Sequence record: OR539219.1
Length of the DNA: 64,000 nt
Direction: 5' to 3' (one strand)
DNA from: Escherichia phage vB-Eco-KMB39
The number at the start of each line of letters is the position of its first letter. Within the stretch, counting starts at the first letter, position 1. Shown here piece by piece: positions 4,309 to 62,260 of the stretch. Below the pieces are notes generated by a model. The model had not been told where the DNA came from, ran no database searches, and saw only the letters and a program-made list of their open reading frames with translations. Position numbers and translations under genes: made by a program.

Positions 4309-4326
4309 CATAAAGCTAAAGGCCCG
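4309..4326 (-). terminator. UUCG-tetraloop hairpin between 39.1-position gene and gene 39
   Basis: minus strand GGCC-UUCG-GGCC stem-loop then UUUAGCUUU. Confidence 0.4.
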
Positions 4327-4334
4327 AAGGCCTT

Positions 4335-4607
4335 TTATTTAAAACGAATAGTTGAATCCTTAAAGAACAGCCCAGAACATACTGTTCCTTCTACTTTCTG
4401 CCCAGTAGATCCAACAGCACGAAATCCAGTATGTTGGAAATCATTTTCAGAGCAACCGAACCAGTTATATCCAGTGATTTCAATATTCGTAAAACCACTT
4501 GATGATAAAATTTTAGTTGCATTATCAGCATCAGTGCATCCTACTAAAGATACTGCTAATACTAATGCTGCGATAGAACGATTAACATATTTCATAATTT
4601 CACTCAA
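4335..4607 (-). CDS. putative lipoprotein (39.1 position)
   Basis: 90 aa; signal peptide with lipobox LVGC near N-terminus. Confidence 0.45.
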   Translation of the reverse strand: MSEIMKYVNRSIAALVLAVSLVGCTDADNATKILSSSGFTNIEITGYNWFGCSENDFQHTGFRAVGSTGQKVEGTVCSGLFFKDSTIRFK

Positions 4608-5800: not shown

Positions 5801-6082
5801 TTAATTGAACAGTGGAGAGATGCGTTTCAGAAGAGTAGCAGCACCTTTAGCGAATTTTACATCATGAAAAACAGTTTCTTCTTCCGTTACAACACGAGCT
5901 TTAATGTTTTCACAATCCCAATTTTTGCGAACAATCTTCAAAAGCTGCAGTAAATCTTTACATTCAGCAATATCGATAACACATCCACGAGAATCTTCCA
6001 TTATCGCACGATAACCGTAAGCCATACCATAATCATTGAAAGATTGCTCGATGATAATTAAATTTTCCATTTTATTCTCCAA
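5801..6082 (-). CDS. hypothetical protein
   Basis: 93 aa ORF directly downstream of promoter-leader cassette copy R1. Confidence 0.4.
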   Translation of the reverse strand: MENKMENLIIIEQSFNDYGMAYGYRAIMEDSRGCVIDIAECKDLLQLLKIVRKNWDCENIKARVVTEEETVFHDVKFAKGAATLLKRISPLFN

Positions 6083-6094
6083 GTTGTTTTCTGT

Positions 6095-6160
6095 ATCAGT
6101 AGTTGATATTGATATAGTACCATAATCAACTACTGATGTATATAGTTTTATGAAAAAATT
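6095..6160 (-). promoter_or_regulatory. promoter-leader cassette copy R1 (weaker -35)
   Basis: minus strand tggTACTATatcaatatcaactactgatacag...ggagaataaaATG; shares leader with R2-R5. Confidence 0.4.
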
Positions 6161-6167
6161 TTAAACT

Positions 6168-17724: not shown

Positions 17725-17754
17725 AATAATTTCCCCAATTTAACCAACAAGACT

Positions 17755-17784
17755 ACTATACCATAGTCTTGTCAGATTGTAAAC
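17755..17784 (-). promoter_or_regulatory. early promoter upstream of dmd
   Basis: minus strand GTTTACA - 17 - tggTATAGT. Confidence 0.55.
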
Positions 17785-22808: not shown

Positions 22809-23189
22809 TCACTTAGTCAAATTTTTTACACATGAATTATAAGAATTTACTATATACTCCATCGGAGCATTTTTACCAGTACGCCATTGATAATTATTAG
22901 CCCAATTTGCCCAAAGTTCAGCGCAGTAGTTTTCAATTTTTTCTTCGCGTGTAATTACATCTGAATTACGATATGCTTGGGCAGATTCATCTGGACGAAT
23001 AGCTTCGTCAAAATTCGCCTGCATTTGTTCTACTGTCTGTTTTGGAGCTTCTTTATAACACTTGACATTAGGATTATAAAACTTGCTTGAACAGTTTACA
23101 ATTTTTCCTACATCAGACTGATTTACTACCGGTCCTTGAGCTACACAACCAGTAAGACCTAATGCAATAACCAAAATAGCGATTTTCAT
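22809..23189 (-). CDS. putative lipoprotein
   Basis: 126 aa from internal Met MKIAILVIALGLTGC (lipobox); track ORF extends through promoter and gp43 terminator. Confidence 0.5.
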   Translation of the reverse strand: MKIAILVIALGLTGCVAQGPVVNQSDVGKIVNCSSKFYNPNVKCYKEAPKQTVEQMQANFDEAIRPDESAQAYRNSDVITREEKIENYCAELWANWANNYQWRTGKNAPMEYIVNSYNSCVKNLTK

Positions 23190-23194
23190 TTCAT

Positions 23195-23260
23195 TCTCCA
23201 AATCTGTATCAGTAGTTGATAGTTGTATAGTACCATGGAAAAACGGGGATGTAAACCATT
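23195..23260 (-). promoter_or_regulatory. promoter-leader cassette copy R2
   Basis: minus strand GTTTACA - 17 - tggTACTATacaactatcaactactgatacagatttggagaatgaaATG. Confidence 0.55.
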
Positions 23261-26070: not shown

Positions 26071-26131
26071 AGATATTCCTTAGTTTATAGCCCGAGTTAT
26101 TAGGCTCTTGATATATTATACTCCAAATAAG

Positions 26132-26150
26132 GGGCCGAAGCCCCTTGCTT
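26132..26150 (-). terminator. UUCG hairpin upstream of gene 43
   Basis: minus strand GGGGC-UUCG-GCCCC then UUAUUU. Confidence 0.45.
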
Positions 26151-26412
26151 AAATTAATACCATTTGTCGGTGAAAAATTGTTAATCCATCTGCATTAATT
26201 GACTTAACTACTGCGGTAAAGTGTTTTTGTTCTGGGTGAACTAATTTTTGAAATTCTATCTGAAATTTTAGTTGGAGGTTTTCTGGTAAATCAAAAAGTG
26301 TTTCTGTTGCAGAAAGATTATATTTTTCTTTAAGAGACGCCATGTATTCTTGCGGAGTTATAGCAGTCATATTAATTACCAATCGTGTATTTAGGAACGA
26401 GTTTCCATTCAT
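26149..26412 (-). CDS. hypothetical small protein between 43 and regA (uncertain)
   Basis: 87 aa track ORF overlapping regA 3' end by about 40 nt; may start at an internal Met or be non-coding. Confidence 0.25.
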   Translation of the reverse strand: MNGNSFLNTRLVINMTAITPQEYMASLKEKYNLSATETLFDLPENLQLKFQIEFQKLVHPEQKHFTAVVKSINADGLTIFHRQMVLI

Positions 26413-28295: not shown

Positions 28296-28316
28296 TATAA
28301 AGGGCCGAAGCCCTTT
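28296..28316 (-). terminator. UUCG hairpin between genes 45 and 44
   Basis: minus strand AAAGGGC-UUCG-GCCCUUU then AUAAUUU. Confidence 0.5.
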
Positions 28317-28317
28317 A

Positions 28318-29004
28318 TTAAAAATCGTGAGTAGAATCAGCTTCAAGAGCTACTACATAATTCGCATGTTCACCTTCAAATTTAGCAGCACCTTGTTTAC
28401 CTTTTGCCCAGAGCAGAAGTTTATAATTTCCTGGTTGCATTTTCATATTTGCCATATTGATAATGAAATTAAATGTATTTTCACCATCATAATCACCAAG
28501 AGTCAAAGAATATTTAACACGAGTCAAAGCAGAATCTTCTACTTTATTAAAACCGTTAATTACGATTTTACCTTCTTTTACTGTGATAGCAATTGTATCA
28601 ATCTGCAGACCGCGAGATACACGCAACAGCTGTTGAAGGTCTTCAGCTTTAATTTCAGTAACAACAGATGCTACCGGGAATGGAATTGGTTTATTAGGAG
28701 CAACTACTGTACTCGGATCGGCTGCTGGCCAAAAAATTGTTGAACGAGCATCAGCAATTTTAATATTACCATCTTCTGACTGGGAAATTTCTGCATCATC
28801 ATTAACTAGAGACAGAATACCGAGAAAACCGTTCAAATCGTAAATTGCTACATCAAAATCAATAGTGTCAGAAATATTTGCTTCCGCATAAGTTGTACCA
28901 TTAACCGCGCGAGTCATAATAAATTGACCGGATTTAAGCATAATACCAGAGTTAATAGTAGCGAAATTTTTAAGCAGAGCAGTAGTATCTTTAGACAGTT
29001 TCAT
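28318..29004 (-). CDS. 45: sliding clamp
   Basis: 228 aa equals T4 gp45. Confidence 0.9.
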   Translation of the reverse strand: MKLSKDTTALLKNFATINSGIMLKSGQFIMTRAVNGTTYAEANISDTIDFDVAIYDLNGFLGILSLVNDDAEISQSEDGNIKIADARSTIFWPAADPSTVVAPNKPIPFPVASVVTEIKAEDLQQLLRVSRGLQIDTIAITVKEGKIVINGFNKVEDSALTRVKYSLTLGDYDGENTFNFIINMANMKMQPGNYKLLLWAKGKQGAAKFEGEHANYVVALEADSTHDF

Positions 29005-33718: not shown

Positions 33719-33737
33719 AGCTAAAGGGCCGAAGCCC
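33719..33737 (-). terminator. UUCG hairpin after alpha-gt
   Basis: minus strand AGGGC-UUCG-GCCCU then UUAGC. Confidence 0.45.
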
Positions 33738-33738
33738 T

Positions 33739-34941
33739 TTATTTTGTAATAATGTCAAACTGCTCTTTAAAGCAGAAGCTTGAATCTTGATGCTGATACA
33801 AAAATTCATAAGCTTTTTCGCGTTCACGGTCATAAAGAGCTCGGTCAGATGACAGTTCTTTAATATGTTCAAATGTTGATTCCATGTCATTTTCATCAAA
33901 CCAAACGATACCGCTATCGTGCGAAATTAATGGAGTATTATCAACACGGAATTTTAAATTTTCGCCAGTAGATTTCCAAAATACTGGAATTGTTCCACAT
34001 GCACCAAGCTCGAGATGAGTATATTCTAAAGAACGCTGTAGATATTTTTTATCTAATTTACTCAGCTGATAACCAAATCCGGATTTACTCATGCGTTCAA
34101 GCATTTCGCTATTTACATAACGGTCGAGAATTTGCGTCGGCAAATTAGGAGCAATTTTAATTTGGTCTACTTGATGAAGACGATAATACTCGTATGGAAT
34201 TCCTTTTTCTTTAATAGGAATGAACGCTGGAGAACGTTCCAGACCTTCCATAATAGTACTTAGTCCTGCAGGTTTAAGATGTTTTTCGTGAAAATCAAAC
34301 ATCTGATAAAAGCCTTTCCATGTAGTAGTACGACCAATCCAACGGTTGATATTCATGTTAATTTCAGAAACATCTTTCCAGTAAGTTGATCGAACCTTCG
34401 CAATATCCATAGGAGGCTGAAAGTTATATACAGTCGGTGCTTCTTCAATATCATCAAACAGTGAAACAGTTTCTGGATACCATTCTTTCATTAAAACTTT
34501 ATTAAAATCGCCATTATCAGAATGGCTAAAAATAACATCAGCTCGACGAACAGTTTCTTCTAATCCCAAATTTCGACGCAAAGAAAGAGAAGAATGGTCA
34601 TGCTGATAAACTACAACACGAACCGAAGGTTTAATGTTATCAATAATTTTTTTATAGTTATTAATCGTGTCTTCTTCAACTGAAGTAGCAGGAACTGAAT
34701 TGATAACTAGAATATCACAATCATTTACCAACTTAAGTGTTTTATCGTATTCTTTTGCCAATAAAACCGGAATTGAAAATGATTTATAATCATGCGCGCA
34801 ATTACGAGTAAATGATTTATCTTTAGCATAAACCAAAGTTACTTCATGACCATTTTTAATAAACCAATCACGCTGCTCAAGAGAAAATTTAGTTACACCG
34901 CAACCTTCAAGACCTCGAGCCATAAAAATGCATACTTTCAT
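33739..34941 (-). CDS. a-gt: DNA alpha-glucosyltransferase
   Basis: 400 aa equals T4 alpha-gt; N-terminus CIFMARGLEGCGVTKFSLEQ. Confidence 0.85.
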   Translation of the reverse strand: MKVCIFMARGLEGCGVTKFSLEQRDWFIKNGHEVTLVYAKDKSFTRNCAHDYKSFSIPVLLAKEYDKTLKLVNDCDILVINSVPATSVEEDTINNYKKIIDNIKPSVRVVVYQHDHSSLSLRRNLGLEETVRRADVIFSHSDNGDFNKVLMKEWYPETVSLFDDIEEAPTVYNFQPPMDIAKVRSTYWKDVSEINMNINRWIGRTTTWKGFYQMFDFHEKHLKPAGLSTIMEGLERSPAFIPIKEKGIPYEYYRLHQVDQIKIAPNLPTQILDRYVNSEMLERMSKSGFGYQLSKLDKKYLQRSLEYTHLELGACGTIPVFWKSTGENLKFRVDNTPLISHDSGIVWFDENDMESTFEHIKELSSDRALYDREREKAYEFLYQHQDSSFCFKEQFDIITK

Positions 34942-37324: not shown

Positions 37325-37361
37325 ACATTATCCTCAATTGCGTTAAAATTTTATTATCCAA

Positions 37362-37380
37362 AAAGGGCCGAAGCCCTTAG
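37362..37380 (-). terminator. UUCG hairpin terminator
   Basis: minus strand AGGGC-UUCG-GCCCU followed by UUUUUGG. Confidence 0.55.
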
Positions 37381-37577
37381 CTAAACTGTTTGGCGCCCTT
37401 CCAGCCTTCGTACATCATTGCGGCTGATATTAATATTGCTCCTGCGCATTTTGAATATTTGTGATTCCAAAACCAGTTCAGAAAAACTTCGTCATCAATA
37501 CCTTGGGCTATCATATTTTCAAAGAACTGACGACGAGCTTCGGCAATTCGTTGCGATAATTTAGATTCAGGATTCAT
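37377..37577 (-). CDS. hypothetical protein
   Basis: 66 aa ORF. Confidence 0.35.
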   Translation of the reverse strand: MNPESKLSQRIAEARRQFFENMIAQGIDDEVFLNWFWNHKYSKCAGAILISAAMMYEGWKGAKQFS

Positions 37578-45284: not shown

Positions 45285-46316
45285 TTACTTAATTAACTGT
45301 AAAGCCTGTTCTAAACGATCAAGACGATTAACAGATTCTTCCCAAATCCTTTTAGCCTGCTCATATTCTTTCTGCGCTTTATTAGAAATTTCTAGAACTT
45401 CTTTATAAGCTTTTTCTAATGCAATAACTTCTGGACGAATTTCTACCTGTTCAGGTGAATCATCAAGACATTCCATTAGTTCCTCAAGGGTAGTTTCTTC
45501 TTTAGGAGTATTCACAATTTCATCACATTTTTGTTGGTAAATTTCTTTATTAGTCGGTGAGTACGCACACTTTACTTCACGAAGACTAATTATAATTTTA
45601 TATCCTTCCCATCCACACATATTTTTGAAAGGATATGTATGAATACTTTTTACAGTTTCCATACAGCCCAAAGCCGTCTCTAATTGATGAGTTATAGTGC
45701 TAGCAATTGAGAAAAATTTATTAATGTTCTTTTGATTAGCTGCTGGTGTAAAAAATCCATAATTCACAAAAATAGCTACTTTATTTTTATCAAGCTCATA
45801 TTCTTTTACGATAATCATATCAGAAGCCAAAGGATGAATTTGACGATAATCGCCATAACATAATTTAGAAGCTGATTTTAGAATTTGTCCTTTGAAAAGT
45901 CTGAAATTACTAATCCAACGACGAGTAAAAATATTCTCAGGGTCTTCTTTGATATTAAGATGATAAGAATTAACATCACCGAACCAATTATATCCTACTA
46001 CATCTTTGGTTCGTTTAATTTCTTTCCCAAAATTACCAAGAATATCCCGATTAACCAAATATGAAAGAAGACGAGATCCTTTAAAGGTTTTCTTAATGGC
46101 ATCTTTATTTGTACGACTAGAAATTTCATGAACTTCATGAATAAATTTGCCGGAAGAAACAATACTTGCATCAATATTATTGAGCCATTGATTGATAATA
46201 GAAAGAACACTATTTTGGCCAAACAGCGGTATAACTTTATCATCAATAACGCTATTGAATGATTTGATATATTCGTTACGAGTCATATTAATCTCCTCAG
46301 TAGAAAGTAAGAACAT
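45285..46316 (-). CDS. hypothetical protein with C-terminal coiled coil (family member B)
   Basis: 343 aa; early promoter upstream; C-terminal coiled coil. Confidence 0.5.
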   Translation of the reverse strand: MFLLSTEEINMTRNEYIKSFNSVIDDKVIPLFGQNSVLSIINQWLNNIDASIVSSGKFIHEVHEISSRTNKDAIKKTFKGSRLLSYLVNRDILGNFGKEIKRTKDVVGYNWFGDVNSYHLNIKEDPENIFTRRWISNFRLFKGQILKSASKLCYGDYRQIHPLASDMIIVKEYELDKNKVAIFVNYGFFTPAANQKNINKFFSIASTITHQLETALGCMETVKSIHTYPFKNMCGWEGYKIIISLREVKCAYSPTNKEIYQQKCDEIVNTPKEETTLEELMECLDDSPEQVEIRPEVIALEKAYKEVLEISNKAQKEYEQAKRIWEESVNRLDRLEQALQLIK

Positions 46317-46344
46317 TATACCACATCCTTGTGGCGAAGTAAAC
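46315..46344 (-). promoter_or_regulatory. early promoter upstream of coiled-coil family member B
   Basis: minus strand GTTTACT - 17 - tggTATAAT; near-identical to promoter at 2419-2448. Confidence 0.6.
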
Positions 46345-47363
46345 TAGTTCAGTGCATTTAGTGCGTTGTTCAGTTTAGAACGTTGCTTCGTGAGATTTTT
46401 GACTTTTTCTTGAGCTTTTTCTAGCATCTTTTCAGCTTCTAGCACTTCATTGGTCGCTTTAACGAGTTCATCATCTACTGCCTTGATAGACTTCTCAATC
46501 GCATCCGCGTGCCATTTTTCAACAGGTTTAAGACTCGGATTTTCAATAGGAAGAAAATTCACTTTATTGAATTTCCATGCATCTTTATTGCCTGAACTAT
46601 ACATCCAAAATTTAGGATCGTTTGATGAGTAATTAGATAAATTTAAGTTATCTTGCACTTCTTGCTTTTTCTCTTGCGGGACTTCATCCTTTCTCAAAAA
46701 ATCGTATTTAAATGAAACGATCATATCAAGTTCATATGTTGTTGTATGTTCCCAATTTCGCTCAAAACGAGGTAAAATCTTAGAATGAACAGCGGCAACA
46801 ACATCCATATACTTAAATGCTTCTGTCAACTGCGATTTAAGGCATTCGCAAATTGAAAGAGAATTTTTTGTATTAGGTTTAAAGCTAATTCGTGCAGTTC
46901 TATTATTTTCTTTTAATGGTCTTACTTCCATCTGAAGAGTATAACCATCAAATTTCAGGTTCTTTAAGTTAATGTCAGAACCTTTTAATCGACTAGCCGT
47001 CGACAAAATTTGCTTTAATTGTTTACGGAATAGAGCAATAAATCTCCATTCAATACGATAATGATTTGGATTGAAAAATCCAGATGATAAATCGACCTTA
47101 CTCTGACCAACACCTTGAACAAACAGAGGATTTTTATAATCAATAGTTTTACAGAAATCGGTGAGCTGCTCACGAGCAGTCATTTGTGTAATATACCCCG
47201 CTTTACTAAAATGACGTAACCATTCACTGCTATTCATATATTTAAAGTGAATATCACGATTAACTTTATCAGGGTCTAAATTATTTTGGCACAAAAATGT
47301 CATAACATCACGAGTATAGCTGGCATTACGAACCATATCTTCAATTTGAGAACGAGTTTTCAT
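46344..47363 (-). CDS. hypothetical protein with C-terminal coiled coil (family member C)
   Basis: 339 aa; starts MKTR; C-terminal coiled coil. Confidence 0.5.
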   Translation of the reverse strand: MKTRSQIEDMVRNASYTRDVMTFLCQNNLDPDKVNRDIHFKYMNSSEWLRHFSKAGYITQMTAREQLTDFCKTIDYKNPLFVQGVGQSKVDLSSGFFNPNHYRIEWRFIALFRKQLKQILSTASRLKGSDINLKNLKFDGYTLQMEVRPLKENNRTARISFKPNTKNSLSICECLKSQLTEAFKYMDVVAAVHSKILPRFERNWEHTTTYELDMIVSFKYDFLRKDEVPQEKKQEVQDNLNLSNYSSNDPKFWMYSSGNKDAWKFNKVNFLPIENPSLKPVEKWHADAIEKSIKAVDDELVKATNEVLEAEKMLEKAQEKVKNLTKQRSKLNNALNALN

Positions 47364-48730: not shown

Positions 48731-49258
48731 TTATGCGAGTACCGTCTTTAACCGTTCTTCAAACTTCCGAAGAGTATTTTGGCGTTCAGCTCTTTGCTTT
48801 TTGTAAGTTTCAATACGCTCTGAAATGAGATTGTATCGTTCATTTACTGATTCTTTCATAAAATCAGGAATTTCACGAGAAGCTTTAATCTCGTCAAATT
48901 TATCAATAACAGCTTGCTCTTCAGCAATTAAGTTATCATACATCAAAATATCTTTCTTGATGAACTCAATATCTTCTTGAGTTACACGAGATAATTTAGA
49001 TGCTTTATCCTTTTTGTACTGTTCGTTAGTATCACGAGACCAGTGTAATGTACGATTTTTATTCGTATTCTTGTAAATTTCTACAATACCAATCTCATCG
49101 ATAATAACGATCCAATTCCAACGAGATTTGTAAATTTGTCCTCCATCAACCGTGATTTCACCTCCAATTGAGATGTCATTAAAGAACTTGCTTTGTGCTT
49201 CTGATTTAAATTTACCATCATTGTAATTTACCAGGTTGAAAATATCTTTAGCGTTCAT
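48731..49258 (-). CDS. hypothetical protein
   Basis: 175 aa from internal Met MNAKDIF; track ORF extends through promoter-leader cassette R3. Confidence 0.45.
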   Translation of the reverse strand: MNAKDIFNLVNYNDGKFKSEAQSKFFNDISIGGEITVDGGQIYKSRWNWIVIIDEIGIVEIYKNTNKNRTLHWSRDTNEQYKKDKASKLSRVTQEDIEFIKKDILMYDNLIAEEQAVIDKFDEIKASREIPDFMKESVNERYNLISERIETYKKQRAERQNTLRKFEERLKTVLA

Positions 49259-49261
49259 TTT

Positions 49262-49310
49262 GTGTTCCTCCGTAGTTGATAGTTGTATAGTACCACAGAG
49301 GAACGGTCTT
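49262..49310 (-). promoter_or_regulatory. promoter-leader cassette copy R3
   Basis: minus strand GTTTACA - 17 - tggTACTATacaactatcaactacggaggaacacaaaATG; 7-bp inverted repeat gttcctc/gaggaac flanks it. Confidence 0.55.
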
Positions 49311-49318
49311 GTAAACAA

Positions 49319-49633
49319 CTAAAAGAAACTTCTTTCACAATTTTTTCCACTGAACCAAGCGCTCACTGCTTTCTTAGTCTCAGGAGCAGTGTTATCCATA
49401 AACCATTCAAAGGCAGCCTTTTTATGATTCTGGAGGGCTTCTCGGGCTTTAATCTGCTCACGGTCTATTAACACTAACATATGAGCCTTTCTTGTCACCA
49501 AGGGCTTCTTATGATTTTTTGAATACTCCCAATCATTTGTCCATCGCATCGTTGTTGCGAACTGAAATACTGCTTCTTTAATTTTAGTTTCGTAAATTTC
49601 ACGAGCCTTTGAGTATAACATTACTACCTCCAT
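49319..49633 (-). CDS. hypothetical protein
   Basis: 104 aa ORF. Confidence 0.4.
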   Translation of the reverse strand: MEVVMLYSKAREIYETKIKEAVFQFATTMRWTNDWEYSKNHKKPLVTRKAHMLVLIDREQIKAREALQNHKKAAFEWFMDNTAPETKKAVSAWFSGKNCERSFF

Positions 49634-49722
49634 TTACCAGTTTAATTCTAGTCATCTTTTTGATGGCAGTCCATATAATCTATTTCTGAACTGCCTTTTT
49701 ATCTTAGAAGGCCTCTTATGAA

Positions 49723-50691
49723 TTATTTCAGAAGAGTAACCTCAGCGATTTCTTCCCAACCGTCTTTATCGGTCATAATAAAGTCAGCAAGATAAAGAGC
49801 AGTACGCAGTGAAACATTGCGTAAACGATTAACATTGACTTTCATCCATGATAATGCTTTATAAGTTTCTTCATCAGAAAGACCACGCTTTTGCATCATG
49901 TCAGTTGAAAGAATAACATCTTCAACCCTGACCATAATTTCTTCATTAGTGTGAACACCCAAATCCAAATAAACTGAGCGGGACACTAATGCTTGTAAAT
50001 GTGGAGCAAGTTTAGTACCACGGTCTAATTCGCGGTCAATATCAACGTTTGTGATAAAAACAATCGTTCCTTTAAATTCAAACTCACGCTCAATGCCTTT
50101 TTCTTCTAAGTAAGAAGATGCGGTGCTCCAGCAGACTTTACGGGTCTCTCCAGTATCCAGAGCGGCTTTTAGAAGATTAAGAATGTCCATATCAGAGAAA
50201 ACATCCACATCATCAATCAAAAGGACAGAATTCTCTTCACGATTATTCCAAAGCTGTTCATAAAGACCGATACCGGAGATTTTACCATTAATGCTTTTAT
50301 ATTCAATGTATCCAATATCATTTGCTTTATTTAAAGCTTTATCTAAAGAATACGTTTTACCAATACCTGCTGCACCAGAGATAATTAATGAACGAATGTT
50401 TCCGTTAATAATACCATTCGTCATCATTCCCATAACATTAAATCTTTTATTAATGCGGGTTTTCATATCTTCATATGATTCTTTAACTTCTTCAACTTTT
50501 ACACCATCATATGAAATGTCTGATTTGTAAACCCAAACACCGCGACGTTTACCGTCAATTTCAACAAAAACTTTACCATCTCCTTGTGCATCTACCGGAG
50601 CATTATCTGGGAACCATTCGCCTAAGAGCTCAAAAGTTCCAGAGATTTCTTTACCGAAGTAGATACCCTTATTGATAGTTACAGTTTTCAT
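49723..50691 (-). CDS. AAA+ ATPase
   Basis: about 322 aa from internal Met MKTVTINKG; Walker A GAAGIGKT, Walker B VLLIDDVD. Confidence 0.55.
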   Translation of the reverse strand: MKTVTINKGIYFGKEISGTFELLGEWFPDNAPVDAQGDGKVFVEIDGKRRGVWVYKSDISYDGVKVEEVKESYEDMKTRINKRFNVMGMMTNGIINGNIRSLIISGAAGIGKTYSLDKALNKANDIGYIEYKSINGKISGIGLYEQLWNNREENSVLLIDDVDVFSDMDILNLLKAALDTGETRKVCWSTASSYLEEKGIEREFEFKGTIVFITNVDIDRELDRGTKLAPHLQALVSRSVYLDLGVHTNEEIMVRVEDVILSTDMMQKRGLSDEETYKALSWMKVNVNRLRNVSLRTALYLADFIMTDKDGWEEIAEVTLLK

Positions 50692-50695
50692 TTTA

Positions 50696-50765
50696 TTCTC
50701 CAAATCCGTATCAGTTGATAGTTGTATAGTACCATAAAGCTTTATGCTTGTAAACCGTTTTGTGA
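50696..50765 (-). promoter_or_regulatory. promoter-leader cassette copy R4 upstream of AAA+ ATPase
   Basis: minus strand GTTTACA - 17 - tggTACTATacaactatcaactgatacggatttggagaataaaATG. Confidence 0.55.
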
Positions 50766-50776
50766 AAAATTTTTGA

Positions 50777-50802
50777 AATAAAAAGGGAGCCCGAAGGCTC
50801 CC
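50777..50802 (-). terminator. intrinsic terminator after nucleotidyltransferase gene
   Basis: minus strand GGGAGCC-UUCG-GGCUCCC followed by UUUUUAUUU; directly upstream of cassette R4. Confidence 0.7.
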
Positions 50803-50804
50803 TA

Positions 50805-51818
50805 TCATTTATAATAACTTCGGTGGTTTTCAAGATAGACCTTCTCAAGGAAGTCATCCCAGAAACCCATGTCTACTTTTTGCTGCATACCGTTCTTAGA
50901 AGCTTCAGTAGATGCTGCTTCTACTTGATCGACCACATCTTCCAAAAACTCTTGAACTGTTTTAAATGGATGTTTACCCAACTTCACGTCGAGAATAAAT
51001 GGAGCGTCTTGAAGTGGATAAACTAAGTCACCAGTTTTGTAAATTTCCAATAGTTGAAGTCCACCACGACAGGCATGGCTCAGAGCTTTCCAGTCAATGC
51101 CTTCATTGGCTTCGGCCTTACGAGCACGTTCACCATATTCAGCATCTAATTTGTTCAGTGACTGCTTAAGCTCAATAAGAGAAAGCGTTGTCTGATATTT
51201 ACGACCCAATACAGTGTAGAACGTTTGTGGACCTGTTTTCTCATGATTATGGAATACCCATTCACAGAACTCGTTTTCTGGAAGACGATGCTTAATATCT
51301 TCAATTTTAGTGCGACGTTGTCCTTGTGTTCCATCTTCTCGGTAGACATTCCGTTGATCAGGAATTTGATTAACTACTTTCAATACATCACGTAATGCAG
51401 CCAAACGAGAACCCTTGACACCGTATTTAGAAGCTTGCTTGCGGACATATCCTAAATAGGATTTCATGTTAGTCGTATAAAAACGAGAACGGTTGTCTTG
51501 AATAAACTTCCACACATCAGGCAAATCAGATTTAACCACTAATTCAGGTGGAGTGTGAAGCATATCCAATGCTACAGTTTCACCATCTGCTGCTAATTTA
51601 AAGAAATATTTAAGACTGTATAGTTCATGGTCAATATCATCTTTAGTGTTTTTAGATGATGTGTTGTTAGTGTTTTTACTCATGTGCTCTTTGACATTTC
51701 CGATAAGAATATCGCGAGCAGGAGGAACAAAGATTTCTTTAAAATCTACATCAGATTCTGGGGTAGAAGTTCCATAAAGATGACTACCAAAATAGCTTTT
51801 CATTACTGTTTTCATCAT
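50805..51818 (-). CDS. Pol-beta-superfamily nucleotidyltransferase-like protein
   Basis: 337 aa; N-terminal motif GSHLYGTSTPESDVDF (GS...SDxD). Confidence 0.5.
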   Translation of the reverse strand: MMKTVMKSYFGSHLYGTSTPESDVDFKEIFVPPARDILIGNVKEHMSKNTNNTSSKNTKDDIDHELYSLKYFFKLAADGETVALDMLHTPPELVVKSDLPDVWKFIQDNRSRFYTTNMKSYLGYVRKQASKYGVKGSRLAALRDVLKVVNQIPDQRNVYREDGTQGQRRTKIEDIKHRLPENEFCEWVFHNHEKTGPQTFYTVLGRKYQTTLSLIELKQSLNKLDAEYGERARKAEANEGIDWKALSHACRGGLQLLEIYKTGDLVYPLQDAPFILDVKLGKHPFKTVQEFLEDVVDQVEAASTEASKNGMQQKVDMGFWDDFLEKVYLENHRSYYK

Positions 51819-53795: not shown

Positions 53796-53927
53796 TACAT
53801 ACTCCTTTGAATAATATCAATAATGTTGTTCACCAAATTATAAGTAAACATTGGGTAATTATATTGAATCATCACATACACAACAAACAAAACTTTCATT
53901 CTCTTCTCCTTGACAGTTGACAAGATT

Positions 53928-53957
53928 ACTATACCATAATCTTGCCAACTTGTAAAC
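53928..53957 (-). promoter_or_regulatory. early promoter
   Basis: minus strand GTTTACA - 17 - tggTATAGT. Confidence 0.5.
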
Positions 53958-54319: not shown

Positions 54320-54559
54320 TTAAACTCTCGTATTATGATCGATAATTTCATCAAGAAACATATCTAACGCTTCTAAAGCATTATCAACTTTAGTTTCAAA
54401 GTCTTTAATGCCTTTATTCGAAATACCCGATGAATACCAAGCAAAGTCAATCAGCTCTTCATCTGCTTTACGAATTGAAGCCACTAATTCCTTGATTTTA
54501 TCTGCTTGCTCTATACTAATCATTATTCCACCACATATGAAAGAGAGAATATTGCACAC
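54320..54559 (-). CDS. hypothetical protein
   Basis: 79 aa ORF. Confidence 0.35.
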
Positions 54560-54711
54560 GCCATGTGAGTTGCAACTTCATCACACATATTATAACGTTT
54601 CTTAAGAAATTCTACAAGTTCTTCACTAGTAACTTCATCCATGTCGACGAAAAAATCACCGTTAATGATGACGTAGATATTTCCTTCTTGATTGAGTGCT
54701 TCAATTTTCAT
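54523..54711 (-). CDS. hypothetical protein
   Basis: 62 aa from internal Met MKIEALN, downstream of promoter-leader cassette R5. Confidence 0.35.
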
Positions 54712-54714
54712 GAT

Positions 54715-54775
54715 GTTCTCCTCTTTATCTGATAGTTGTATAGTACCACAGCTCAAACGGAAAGTAAACCGGTAA
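54715..54775 (-). promoter_or_regulatory. promoter-leader cassette copy R5
   Basis: minus strand GTTTACT - 17 - tggTACTATacaactatcagataaagaggagaacatcATG. Confidence 0.5.
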
Positions 54776-54776
54776 A

Positions 54777-54802
54777 ATGAAAAAAGTCTCCCGAAGGAGA
54801 CC
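54777..54802 (-). terminator. intrinsic terminator after rI.-1-position gene
   Basis: minus strand GGUCUCC-UUCG-GGAGACU followed by U7; directly upstream of cassette R5. Confidence 0.7.
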
Positions 54803-54807
54803 TAATG

Positions 54808-59552: not shown

Positions 59553-59730
59553 CTAAACGAATAGGTTCATGAATGCCATATCCCTGAACAGAAATTTCTG
59601 TCGTAGGATAAATTCCATCAATATCACCCATATTCCAGGCTTCATTAAATTGCTGTTCGCCTGAATTACTAAACCACTCGGCGAAAGCATTTAGCACATC
59701 TTCAGAACCTTCAATAATTATCTTTGCCAT
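59509..59730 (-). CDS. hypothetical protein
   Basis: 73 aa acidic ORF. Confidence 0.4.
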   Translation of the reverse strand: MAKIIIEGSEDVLNAFAEWFSNSGEQQFNEAWNMGDIDGIYPTTEISVQGYGIHEPIRLVEYDLCTGEEVKYD

Positions 59731-60147
59731 TACAAACTCTCGGTGAAGGTACGAGCGATAACGTCGCGCTGCTGTTCCGGAGTCAGAGAGTTAAAGCGAA
59801 CTGCATAACCAGATACACGGATGGTCAGCTGCGGATATTTTTCCGGATGCTTAACTGCATCTTCCAGAGTTTCACGACGCAGAACGTTAACGTTCAGGTG
59901 TTGACCACCTTCAATTTTAACTAGTTTCACGACGCAGAACGTTAACGTTCAGGTGTTGACCACCTTCAATTTTAACTGTAGGTTGTGTTTCAATTTCAAT
60001 TTCACGGGCATGCAAACCGTAGAAAATTTCCGGGTCTACAAAAGAGTCCTCTTTAAAGGTTTTAGAGACAATAATTCGTGCTTGAATACCATCTTCAAAA
60101 TAAATAGTACCTTTATGTGTGCCTTCAAGAATTTGATATGCTTTCAT
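59730..60147 (-). pseudogene. autonomous glycyl-radical cofactor (GrcA/YfiD-like) gene split by a 55-bp tandem duplication
   Basis: track ORFs 59917-60147 and 59730-59930 both encode [18 protein letters not shown]; distal ORF ends [29 protein letters not shown]; joined frame restored by removing one repeat copy. Confidence 0.7.
59868..59977. repeat. perfect 55-bp tandem direct duplication (2 copies) inside the grcA-like gene
   Basis: unit agtttcacgacgcagaacgttaacgttcaggtgttgaccaccttcaattttaact seen twice back to back. Confidence 0.8.
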
Positions 60148-61167: not shown

Positions 61168-61641
61168 TTATTTGAACGATTTAACGTACTGAATAGAACC
61201 TTTACTATTTACAAAGGCAATTTTACCATTTTTATTATACATGGTAGCAGTACGCTGATAGCCATAAGTTTGCTTACCAGATTGATAACCAACTAATGCA
61301 AAATTATCTTCACCCATTTTATTCTGTTTAGCGCGAATGCGTTCATGACCATGTGCCATAAGAACCTTAGCATCACCAGTTACAATGGATCGACGAGTTT
61401 TTTCATCTTCAACTGTATTAACAAAGTCGTCAAATGAATCAAATTTAGCATGAGATTTATTATACAGTTTTCCATCTACTGCATAATTATATCCCTGTAC
61501 ATCCATCTCAACTTCTGTACCATCATCCAATACAGCAGTAATTTTCTGTCCTTTTTTAAATTTCAAAAGATCAGTAAAAGATTCAGCAATAATTTGAGAA
61601 TTAATAGCTGCTTCAGTGATAAATTCTTGATATGTTTTCAT
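61168..61641 (-). CDS. internal (capsid-packaged) protein with capsid targeting sequence
   Basis: 157 aa; N-terminus MKTYQEFITEA matches the T4 internal-protein targeting sequence cleaved after Glu; early promoter upstream. Confidence 0.65.
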   Translation of the reverse strand: MKTYQEFITEAAINSQIIAESFTDLLKFKKGQKITAVLDDGTEVEMDVQGYNYAVDGKLYNKSHAKFDSFDDFVNTVEDEKTRRSIVTGDAKVLMAHGHERIRAKQNKMGEDNFALVGYQSGKQTYGYQRTATMYNKNGKIAFVNSKGSIQYVKSFK

Positions 61642-61694
61642 GTGTTTCCTTTAAATATTTTAATTAGTAATTTGTCTCTTCAAGCAACTGTGAA

Positions 61695-61725
61695 TATACT
61701 ATCACAATTCTAGGAGAAAGTAAAC
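61695..61725 (-). promoter_or_regulatory. early promoter upstream of internal protein gene
   Basis: minus strand GTTTACT - 17 - TAGTAT. Confidence 0.45.
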
Positions 61726-61729
61726 AACT

Positions 61730-62260
<531 letters not shown>

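Follow-up and report, generated by a model that had tools for sequence, protein, structure and literature searches.

Genomic context and layout of the five cassettes

The window, which is the whole 64,000-nucleotide stretch of Escherichia phage vB-Eco-KMB39 (OR539219.1) that was analysed, was assigned on sequence grounds to a Tequatrovirus, that is, a T4-like phage. It was 98% identical to Tequatroviruses such as KarlGJung, Sf23 and teqhad and was collinear with T4 over the region between rIIA and about 68.8 kb, with all genes of this part on the minus strand. Five copies of a cassette, R1 to R5, were found, each leading into the start codon of a different gene. Their parts are given below; the +1 positions are predicted by register from T4.

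6068..6167, minus strand: R1 cassette, with an UP-like A/T tract, TGn and the -10 TACTAT at 6119-6114
6143-6138, minus strand: R1 -35, degenerate (ATATAC)
6107, minus strand: R1 predicted +1
6080-6070, minus strand: R1 leader GGAGAATAAAA
5801-6070, minus strand, ATG at 6070: gene downstream of R1, a cef-proximal ORF of 89 aa
23187..23280, minus strand: R2 cassette, with an UP element, -35 GTTTAC at 23256-23251 and -10 TACTAT at 23232-23227
23220, minus strand: R2 predicted +1
23199-23196, minus strand: R2 Shine-Dalgarno (SD) GGAG
22809-23189, minus strand, ATG at 23189: gene downstream of R2, imm.1 (DUF5481, lipoprotein-like)
49256..49340, minus strand: R3 cassette, with -35 GTTTAC at 49316-49311 and -10 TACTAT at 49292-49287
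49280, minus strand: R3 predicted +1
49271-49267, minus strand: R3 SD GGAGG
48731-49258, minus strand, ATG at 49258: gene downstream of R3, nrdC.8
50689..50803, minus strand: R4 cassette, with an UP element, -35 GTTTAC at 50755-50750 and -10 TACTAT at 50731-50726
50803-50784, minus strand: intrinsic terminator of nrdC.11 in R4, GGGAGCC-UUCG-GGCUCCC
50719, minus strand: R4 predicted +1
50701-50691, minus strand: R4 leader GGAGAATAAAA
49723-50691, minus strand, ATG at 50691: gene downstream of R4, nrdC.10 (AAA-type NTPase)
54709..54803, minus strand: R5 cassette, with -35 GTTTAC at 54769-54764 and -10 TACTAT at 54745-54740
54803-54784, minus strand: R5 terminator, GGUCUCC-UUCG-GGAGAC
54733, minus strand: R5 predicted +1
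54721-54718, minus strand: R5 SD GGAG
54523-54711, minus strand, ATG at 54711: gene downstream of R5, mobD.5 (62 aa)

The R3 promoter overlapped the end of nrdC.9 and had no upstream stem-loop. The 89-aa ORF behind R1 matched no Pfam family, and it was affected by a 200-bp deletion in T4 and in approximately 40% of the sampled relatives. Protein comparison revealed no relation among the five downstream proteins, in agreement with the claim, made by the sequence-only reading of this DNA, that unrelated genes stand behind a shared start region.

The repeated core and its family

A search of the window with the 21-mer TGGTACTATACAACTATCAAC, allowing up to three mismatches, returned exactly five matches, all on the minus strand:

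6102-6122, minus strand: R1, three mismatches
23215-23235, minus strand: R2, no mismatch
49275-49295, minus strand: R3, no mismatch
50714-50734, minus strand: R4, no mismatch
54728-54748, minus strand: R5, two mismatches

The 21-mer without its last two bases, the 19-nt core TGGTACTATACAACTATCA, was exact in four copies (minus strand, at 23235, 49295, 50734 and 54748) and had three mismatches in the fifth, at 6122. Dinucleotide shuffles contained 0.00 matches to the 21-mer, so that no chance copies are expected. In a multiple alignment (A1), all five copies shared GTTTAC (degenerate in R1), a 17-nt spacer and TGGTACTAT followed by A(C/T)CAA(C/T)ATCA. A longer leader, ACTAC(T)GATAC(A/G)GA..TTGGAGAAT(A/G)AAATG, was common to R1, R2 and R4 only; R3 and R5 had the core alone in common with the others and continued directly into a GGAG Shine-Dalgarno of their own. 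The same two layers of sharing were recovered by a repeat finder (families D3, D5, D10 and D12). The five-copy repeat combining promoter and leader, as first proposed, was thus confirmed by mismatch search, shuffles and alignment. The leader, proposed to be conserved throughout, was conserved in its long form in R1, R2 and R4 and reduced to the core in R3 and R5.

The family is larger than the five copies to which it had been limited. In T4, the sub-family has 11 members:

6609: before the remnant ORF adjoining cef
27059: before imm.1
53922: before nrdC.8
55363: before nrdC.10
58759: before mobD.5
65393: before denV
70675: before e.8
146854: before frd.3
163652: before motA
166786: before ndd.4
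167065: ndd.6 region

A 90-nt cassette query of the phage collection matched 3,719 places in 549 records, about seven per genome. The records were almost all Tequatroviruses, and one near-identical e.8 copy lay in a Mosigvirus. On this comparison, the window copies are identified as orthologues of the T4 early promoters before the cef-proximal ORF, imm.1, nrdC.8, nrdC.10 and mobD.5. The spacers of the nrdC.10 and frd.3 copies were identical (AAGCATAAAGCTTTA), and those of the imm.1, ndd.4 and nrdC.8 copies were also alike. Since the polymerase does not read the spacers, their sharing by distant copies points to common descent or exchange and not to convergence alone.

Promoter status and upstream terminators

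R2 to R5 had an exact -35 GTTTAC(A/T), a 17-bp spacer, an extended -10 TGn and a -10 within TAYWAT; the -35 of R1 was ATATAC. R1, R2 and R4 had the UP element AAAA(A)TTTTT(T)CA(C/T)AAAA, where R5 had TTTTTTCATTTTA. Upstream of R3 the sequence is coding, yet A/T-rich. A generic sigma-70 scan independently picked R3 and R4 (TTTACA-17-TACTAT with TG) as well as both terminators. Existing annotation agreed. In the T4 record U76612, a terminator is annotated between nrdC.11 and nrdC.10 along with -35 and -10 signals, the latter under the label 'early promoter 54.4'; -35 and -10 signals also stand before nrdC.8. Two paralogous copies of the ndd region are annotated as promoters in the T4 record X75802. 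At the match to R5, the records of T4, fPS-90 and fPS-65 list a terminator together with a promoter or -10 signal, and 'predicted early promoter' annotations occur in the records of relatives.

In a T4 transcription paper, the region that follows Pe26.4 downstream begins at map unit 27,044. This position is the A seven nucleotides after the imm.1 TACTAT, which fits a +1 at that register; by the same register, transcription from the window copies is predicted to start at the positions listed above. According to the review literature, T4 early promoters have the UP/-35/TGn/-10 layout and additional consensus regions beyond the hexamers. TACTAT had been regarded as a variant -10. It falls within the T-even consensus TAYWAT given by Comeau, Arbiol & Krisch (2014; PMC4122927), and hence is no special or unusual box.

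The placement of R4 and R5 directly behind strong UUCG terminators held. The hairpin before R4 had a folding energy of -18 kcal/mol (z -3.9) and that before R5 -11.4 kcal/mol (z -3.3), each followed by a T-run. Elsewhere, R1 and R2 had weak, non-significant hairpins and R3 had none.

Variation at the cassette junctions

Gene content around the cassettes was surveyed in an evenly spaced sample of the matching phage records for each junction. The survey covered the five cassette junctions and two promoter-free controls, which is too few for a formal test:

nrdC.11/nrdC.10 (R4): indel in 25 of 53 sampled genomes, at least six size classes
gene 43/imm.1 (R2): indel in 26 of 37, an extra ORF of approximately 245 bp directly after the leader
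motB/ORF/cef (R1): indel in 24 of 40, -200 bp and +443 bp
nrdC.9/nrdC.8 (R3): indel in 0 of 29, invariant
rI.-1/mobD.5 (R5): indel in 1 of 40, essentially invariant
nrdC.10/nrdC.9 (promoter-free control): indel in 6 of 39, five of them an HNH homing endonuclease
nrdC.8/nrdC.7 (promoter-free control): indel in 0 of 33, invariant

The R1, R2 and R4 junctions are indel hotspots with breakpoints that map, by loss of homology, inside the cassette; at the R1 junction, breaks were found at both cassette edges (about 6174 and 6064). Several forms were seen between nrdC.11 and nrdC.10. The window and T4 had the plain arrangement. T2/SV76 had a modA-like gene, with a promoter and a terminator of its own, between direct repeats of the stem-loop, UP element and -35. 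Phage fPS-90 contained a module in which a family promoter precedes a small ORF and a DUF4031 gene, EH2 a second module with a TGATACTATAGACCTATCAA promoter and another small ORF, and L021 both modules together; in L028 the -35 was deleted. The modules were combinatorially present or absent, with a family promoter at the start of each, and homology between the forms stopped either just after ..CTATCAA or in the terminator/UP/-35 part. The exact core preceded at least 12 different start regions across eight IMG/VR contigs and T4. An apparently chimeric promoter in EH2 proved to be the ordinary nrdC.8 promoter. As a modest descriptive addition, the nrdC.11/nrdC.10 site acts as a landing pad on which promoter-bounded modules are combined.

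The suggestion that the repeats serve as recombination substrates linked to variable genes was therefore borne out in part. Among relatives, insertions and replacements broke inside the cassettes at R1, R2 and R4, and the flanks of R3 and R5 did not vary across the sampled genomes except for the single R5 indel. A recombination role is not universal: with two sister cassettes frozen, having a cassette is not sufficient for plasticity.

These frozen junctions are also what one would expect if the copies were ordinary early promoters at fixed orthologous sites, alike solely through selection (for RNA polymerase binding and for RegB and ribosome recognition) and without a real role in recombination. 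Three further results agree with that explanation. The simple R4-by-R3 deletion predicted by a minicircle model was found in 0 of 678 records in a synthetic-junction search. Breakpoints of indels between the window and T4 were not enriched at early promoters in a permutation test (2–3 of 20 versus 1.4–1.5 expected, p = 0.19–0.42). Many indels of the region are homing endonuclease genes. Against it, the unread spacers are identical or nearly so in distant copies (nrdC.10 and frd.3), where pure convergence fails; the alternative architectures lose homology inside the cassette; and polymorphism is far greater at the R1, R2 and R4 junctions than at the two controls without a promoter. We therefore consider selection on fixed promoters, as the sole cause of the likeness, unlikely.

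In the window, every TGG-TACTAT promoter had the start region A(C/T)CAA(C/T)ATCA, which was absent from the early promoters of the TATAAT type. It is conceivable, although improbable, that the invariant 19-nt core identifies T-even early promoters that form a sub-class of distinct function. If so, the discriminator and start region would confer a specific regulatory property; candidates are that they respond selectively to polymerase ribosylated by Alt or ModA, or that they take part in shutting early promoters off. In the proposed sub-class, the core runs from TGn and TACTAT through the discriminator ACAACT to the start region ATCA. Crossovers might also occur preferentially at the 19-nt core, as the homology of alternative architectures repeatedly stops directly after ..CTATCA(A).

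Leaders and putative RegB sites

All five copies had GGAG 6–10 nt before the ATG, and the leaders were predicted to be unstructured. The optimal target of T4 RegB/S1 is the single-stranded 11-mer GGAGAAUAAAA, with the consensus GGAGRAYARAA (Durand et al. 2006, PMC1702504). From SD to AUG, R1 and R4 were identical to this optimum, and these two stretches were the only exact occurrences of the consensus in the 64 kb (0.39 expected). R2 matched the optimum at 10 of 11 positions; R3 and R5 matched partially, with GGAG but without the full A-rich part. In T4, the GGAG of nrdC.8, the orthologue of R3, is moderately cleaved by RegB in vivo, and motA, a member of the family, is a good RegB substrate (PMC1702504). 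For the 3' part of the leader a function is thus documented, and the shared TTGGAGAATAAAATG would both bind ribosomes strongly and provide a built-in site for inactivation.

The leader had also been read as carrying a conserved hairpin, TATCA-n5-TGATA. On a rival explanation, the leader is a structured cis-regulatory RNA whose hairpin would control translation or stability. A 5-bp hairpin can indeed form in R1 and R2. It was weak there (R1: -2.7 kcal/mol, z 0.04; R2: -3.2 kcal/mol, z -0.46). R3 and R5 lack it, and R4 cannot form it, as only 2 nt would be left for the loop. Orthologues had non-compensatory changes, among them CGATA, an altered loop and the loss of TG; the first base of the stem is lost at the predicted +1, and RegB requires a single-stranded site (PMC1702504). 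Rfam covariance models at the gathering score found no match in the whole window, and a known RNA family was rejected on that basis. The hairpin was likewise rejected as a functional structure, being weak, limited to two copies, unconserved and free of compensatory change, and we regard a regulatory RNA structure in the leader as very improbable.

The peptide GTIQLST is the in-frame translation of the promoter core and occurred in the ORF extensions at 48731-49318, 49723-50808 and 54523-54756. That the repeat is coding, with GTIQLST... as an N-terminal peptide on longer downstream proteins, is hardly credible: in each of the five window copies the core lay in the reading frame of the ATG (distances of 36, 42, 36, 45 and 51 nt) and three ORFs were extended through it, but in relatives the core-ATG distance was also 35, 37, 44, 46, 49, 50 and 52 nt, orthologous e.8 copies varied by 1-nt indels (50, 51 and 52 nt), some copies had in-frame stops, every copy had a canonical GGAG and ATG, and the predicted transcript begins within the supposed extension. 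With the varying frame and the in-frame stops, a coding extension was rejected, and the extension is an artefact of ORF calling, as the sequence-only reading had held.

Proposed mode of action

We conclude, with a probability of about 0.9, that the copies are T4-type sigma-70 early promoters joined to a translation-initiation leader, two of them with an upstream terminator, in the form of T-even promoter-early/stem-loop elements (PeSLs). Judging from the sequence and from the annotation of the T4 orthologues, host RNA polymerase in its unmodified state would bind them within the first minute of infection. It would contact the UP element (AAAAATTTTTTCACAAAA), the -35 GTTTAC(A/T), the 17-bp spacer, the extended -10 TG and TACTAT, and transcription would start at the A seven nucleotides downstream of TACTAT, within ACAACT-A-TCA. 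The resulting leader of 22–37 nt, A-rich and unstructured, with GGAG 6–10 nt before the AUG, would give strong early translation. As partly shown in T4, RegB would cleave this leader when the early period ends. Since the sequence for strong translation coincides with the RegB target, the mRNA would be marked for cleavage at that time. The UUCG hairpins before R4 and R5 would end the upstream transcript and so provide insulation.

In the same reading, and on the comparison of relatives, the roughly 7–11 near-identical patches of 20–90 bp scattered over each genome would act as crossover points, through which promoter-bounded modules would be inserted, lost or swapped. Each shuffled module would bring its own ready-made expression signals. 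The cassettes would thereby explain how the changing small accessory genes of T4-like phages are expressed right after infection and then silenced by RegB.

Comparison with known systems

The interpretation is correct and the feature is already known: it is the early promoter/RBS/terminator cassette of T4-like phages, a described hotspot of gene shuffling. The window copies are orthologous to classical T4 early promoters (54.4, Pe26.4 and motA) and share with them the UP/-35/TGn/-10 layout and the extra consensus. There is no substantive difference; a few bases vary, such as ACAACTATCA in R5 versus ACAACCATCG in T4. Compared with the RegB/S1 sites of T4 (PMC1702504), R1 and R4 carry the exact optimum of these sites, whereas R3 and R5 deviate in the A-rich part.

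The PeSLs of RB49 and phi1 (Arbiol et al. 2010, PMC2839356), in which an AT-rich tract and a sigma-70 promoter are combined with a stem-loop, an SD and an ATG, mediate modular shuffling. As in the window, composite promoter/terminator/SD/ATG units flank small accessory ORFs. Minicircles were demonstrated in RB49/phi1, and crossovers there were mapped to the AT-rich region and to the interval from the -10 to the ATG, which is also where homology ends in the window cassettes and their relatives. The two sets differ in that RB49 promoters are near-perfect TTGACA-N17-TATAAT and that their stem-loop, instead of preceding the promoter, usually falls between its boxes or across them.

The closest likeness is to the PeSLs of T4 and PST, phages to which the concept was extended after RB49/phi1. 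By Comeau, Arbiol & Krisch (2014; PMC4122927), these are defined by TTTACW-N17-TAYWAT with a stem-loop just upstream, a Shine-Dalgarno and ATG at the 3' end and an AT-rich upstream region, and they occur in hyperplastic early regions adjoining indels. The likeness to PeSL cassettes that had been noticed from the sequence was sustained, as this definition fits and the T4 orthologues are annotated early promoters. R4 and R5 carry every sequence feature of a PeSL. R1 to R3 are without a convincing stem-loop; because a significant one is present in R4 and R5 only, R1 to R3 are promoter-leader units and not complete PeSLs. Two differences from the PeSLs of that source are thus the restriction of the stem-loop to R4 and R5 and the lack of population variability at R3 and R5. 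The window copies probably correspond one to one to PeSLs individually listed for T4 and PST. Phage group, promoter consensus and the 3' SD and ATG are the same, and the worked example in that paper, the ndd.4/.5 exchange, concerns the T4 region that holds both ndd copies of the sub-family.

Gene content at cassette-flanking and other early loci

The 89-aa ORF (5801–6070) behind R1, the cassette near cef, matched no Pfam family. In T4 and approximately 40% of the sampled relatives, this ORF was a remnant through a 200-bp deletion, which started approximately 9 nt past the ATG and appears to be bounded by short AAA(A)TT repeats.

The promoter-free intergenic region between nrdC.10 and nrdC.9 (49633–49723) was occupied by an HNH homing endonuclease gene of approximately 700 bp in T6, RB7, IME537 and other phages. 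This gene is a separate insertion mechanism at work in the same region.

At 61168–61860, the window contained 442 bp, compared with 1.4 kb in T4 (denV-ipII-ipIII). An early promoter at approximately 61725 was followed by a gene beginning MKTYQEFITEAA, with an N-terminus of the internal-protein type, and the interval looks like the polymorphic internal-protein locus.

The vs.6 gene, whose product was a GrcA-like glycyl-radical cofactor, contained a perfect 55-bp tandem duplication (59868–59922 and 59923–59977; 59868–59977 in whole) that shifted the frame and split the gene into ORFs 59917–60147 and 59730–59930. Since this region was 281 bp in the window and 226 bp in the closest relatives, the duplication was private to the window sequence. 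It could be a true mutation or an artefact of assembly.

Recurrent promoters and hairpins

Two further pairs of early promoters outside the TACTAT group, the sub-family of R1–R5, were near-identical, including the spacer between −35 and −10 (2419–2450 and 46315–46346, 94% identity; 17747–17784 and 53920–53957, 87% identity). As these pairs also share spacers, spacer-sharing sub-families are general in this genome, and the TACTAT group is not special in this respect.

A family of GGGCC-GAAG-GCCC hairpins, read on the minus strand as UUCG-loop terminators, recurred across the early region:
4316–4342, plus strand, GGGCC-GAAG-GCCC hairpin
26127–26153, plus strand, GGGCC-GAAG-GCCC hairpin
28297–28323, plus strand, GGGCC-GAAG-GCCC hairpin
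33721–33747, plus strand, GGGCC-GAAG-GCCC hairpin
37360–37386, plus strand, GGGCC-GAAG-GCCC hairpin

Cassettes in Mosigvirus PhAPEC2

The e.8 cassette of Mosigvirus PhAPEC2 (L033) was near-identical to that of Tequatrovirus across a genus-level distance, and the PhAPEC2 frd.3 homologue adjoined e.8 and e.6, rather than lying close to gene 32:
1500–1595 and 2230–2290 of L033, segments to which these two observations refer

This cassette likeness and the placement of the frd.3 homologue suggest that genes headed by cassettes have been transferred or relocated.
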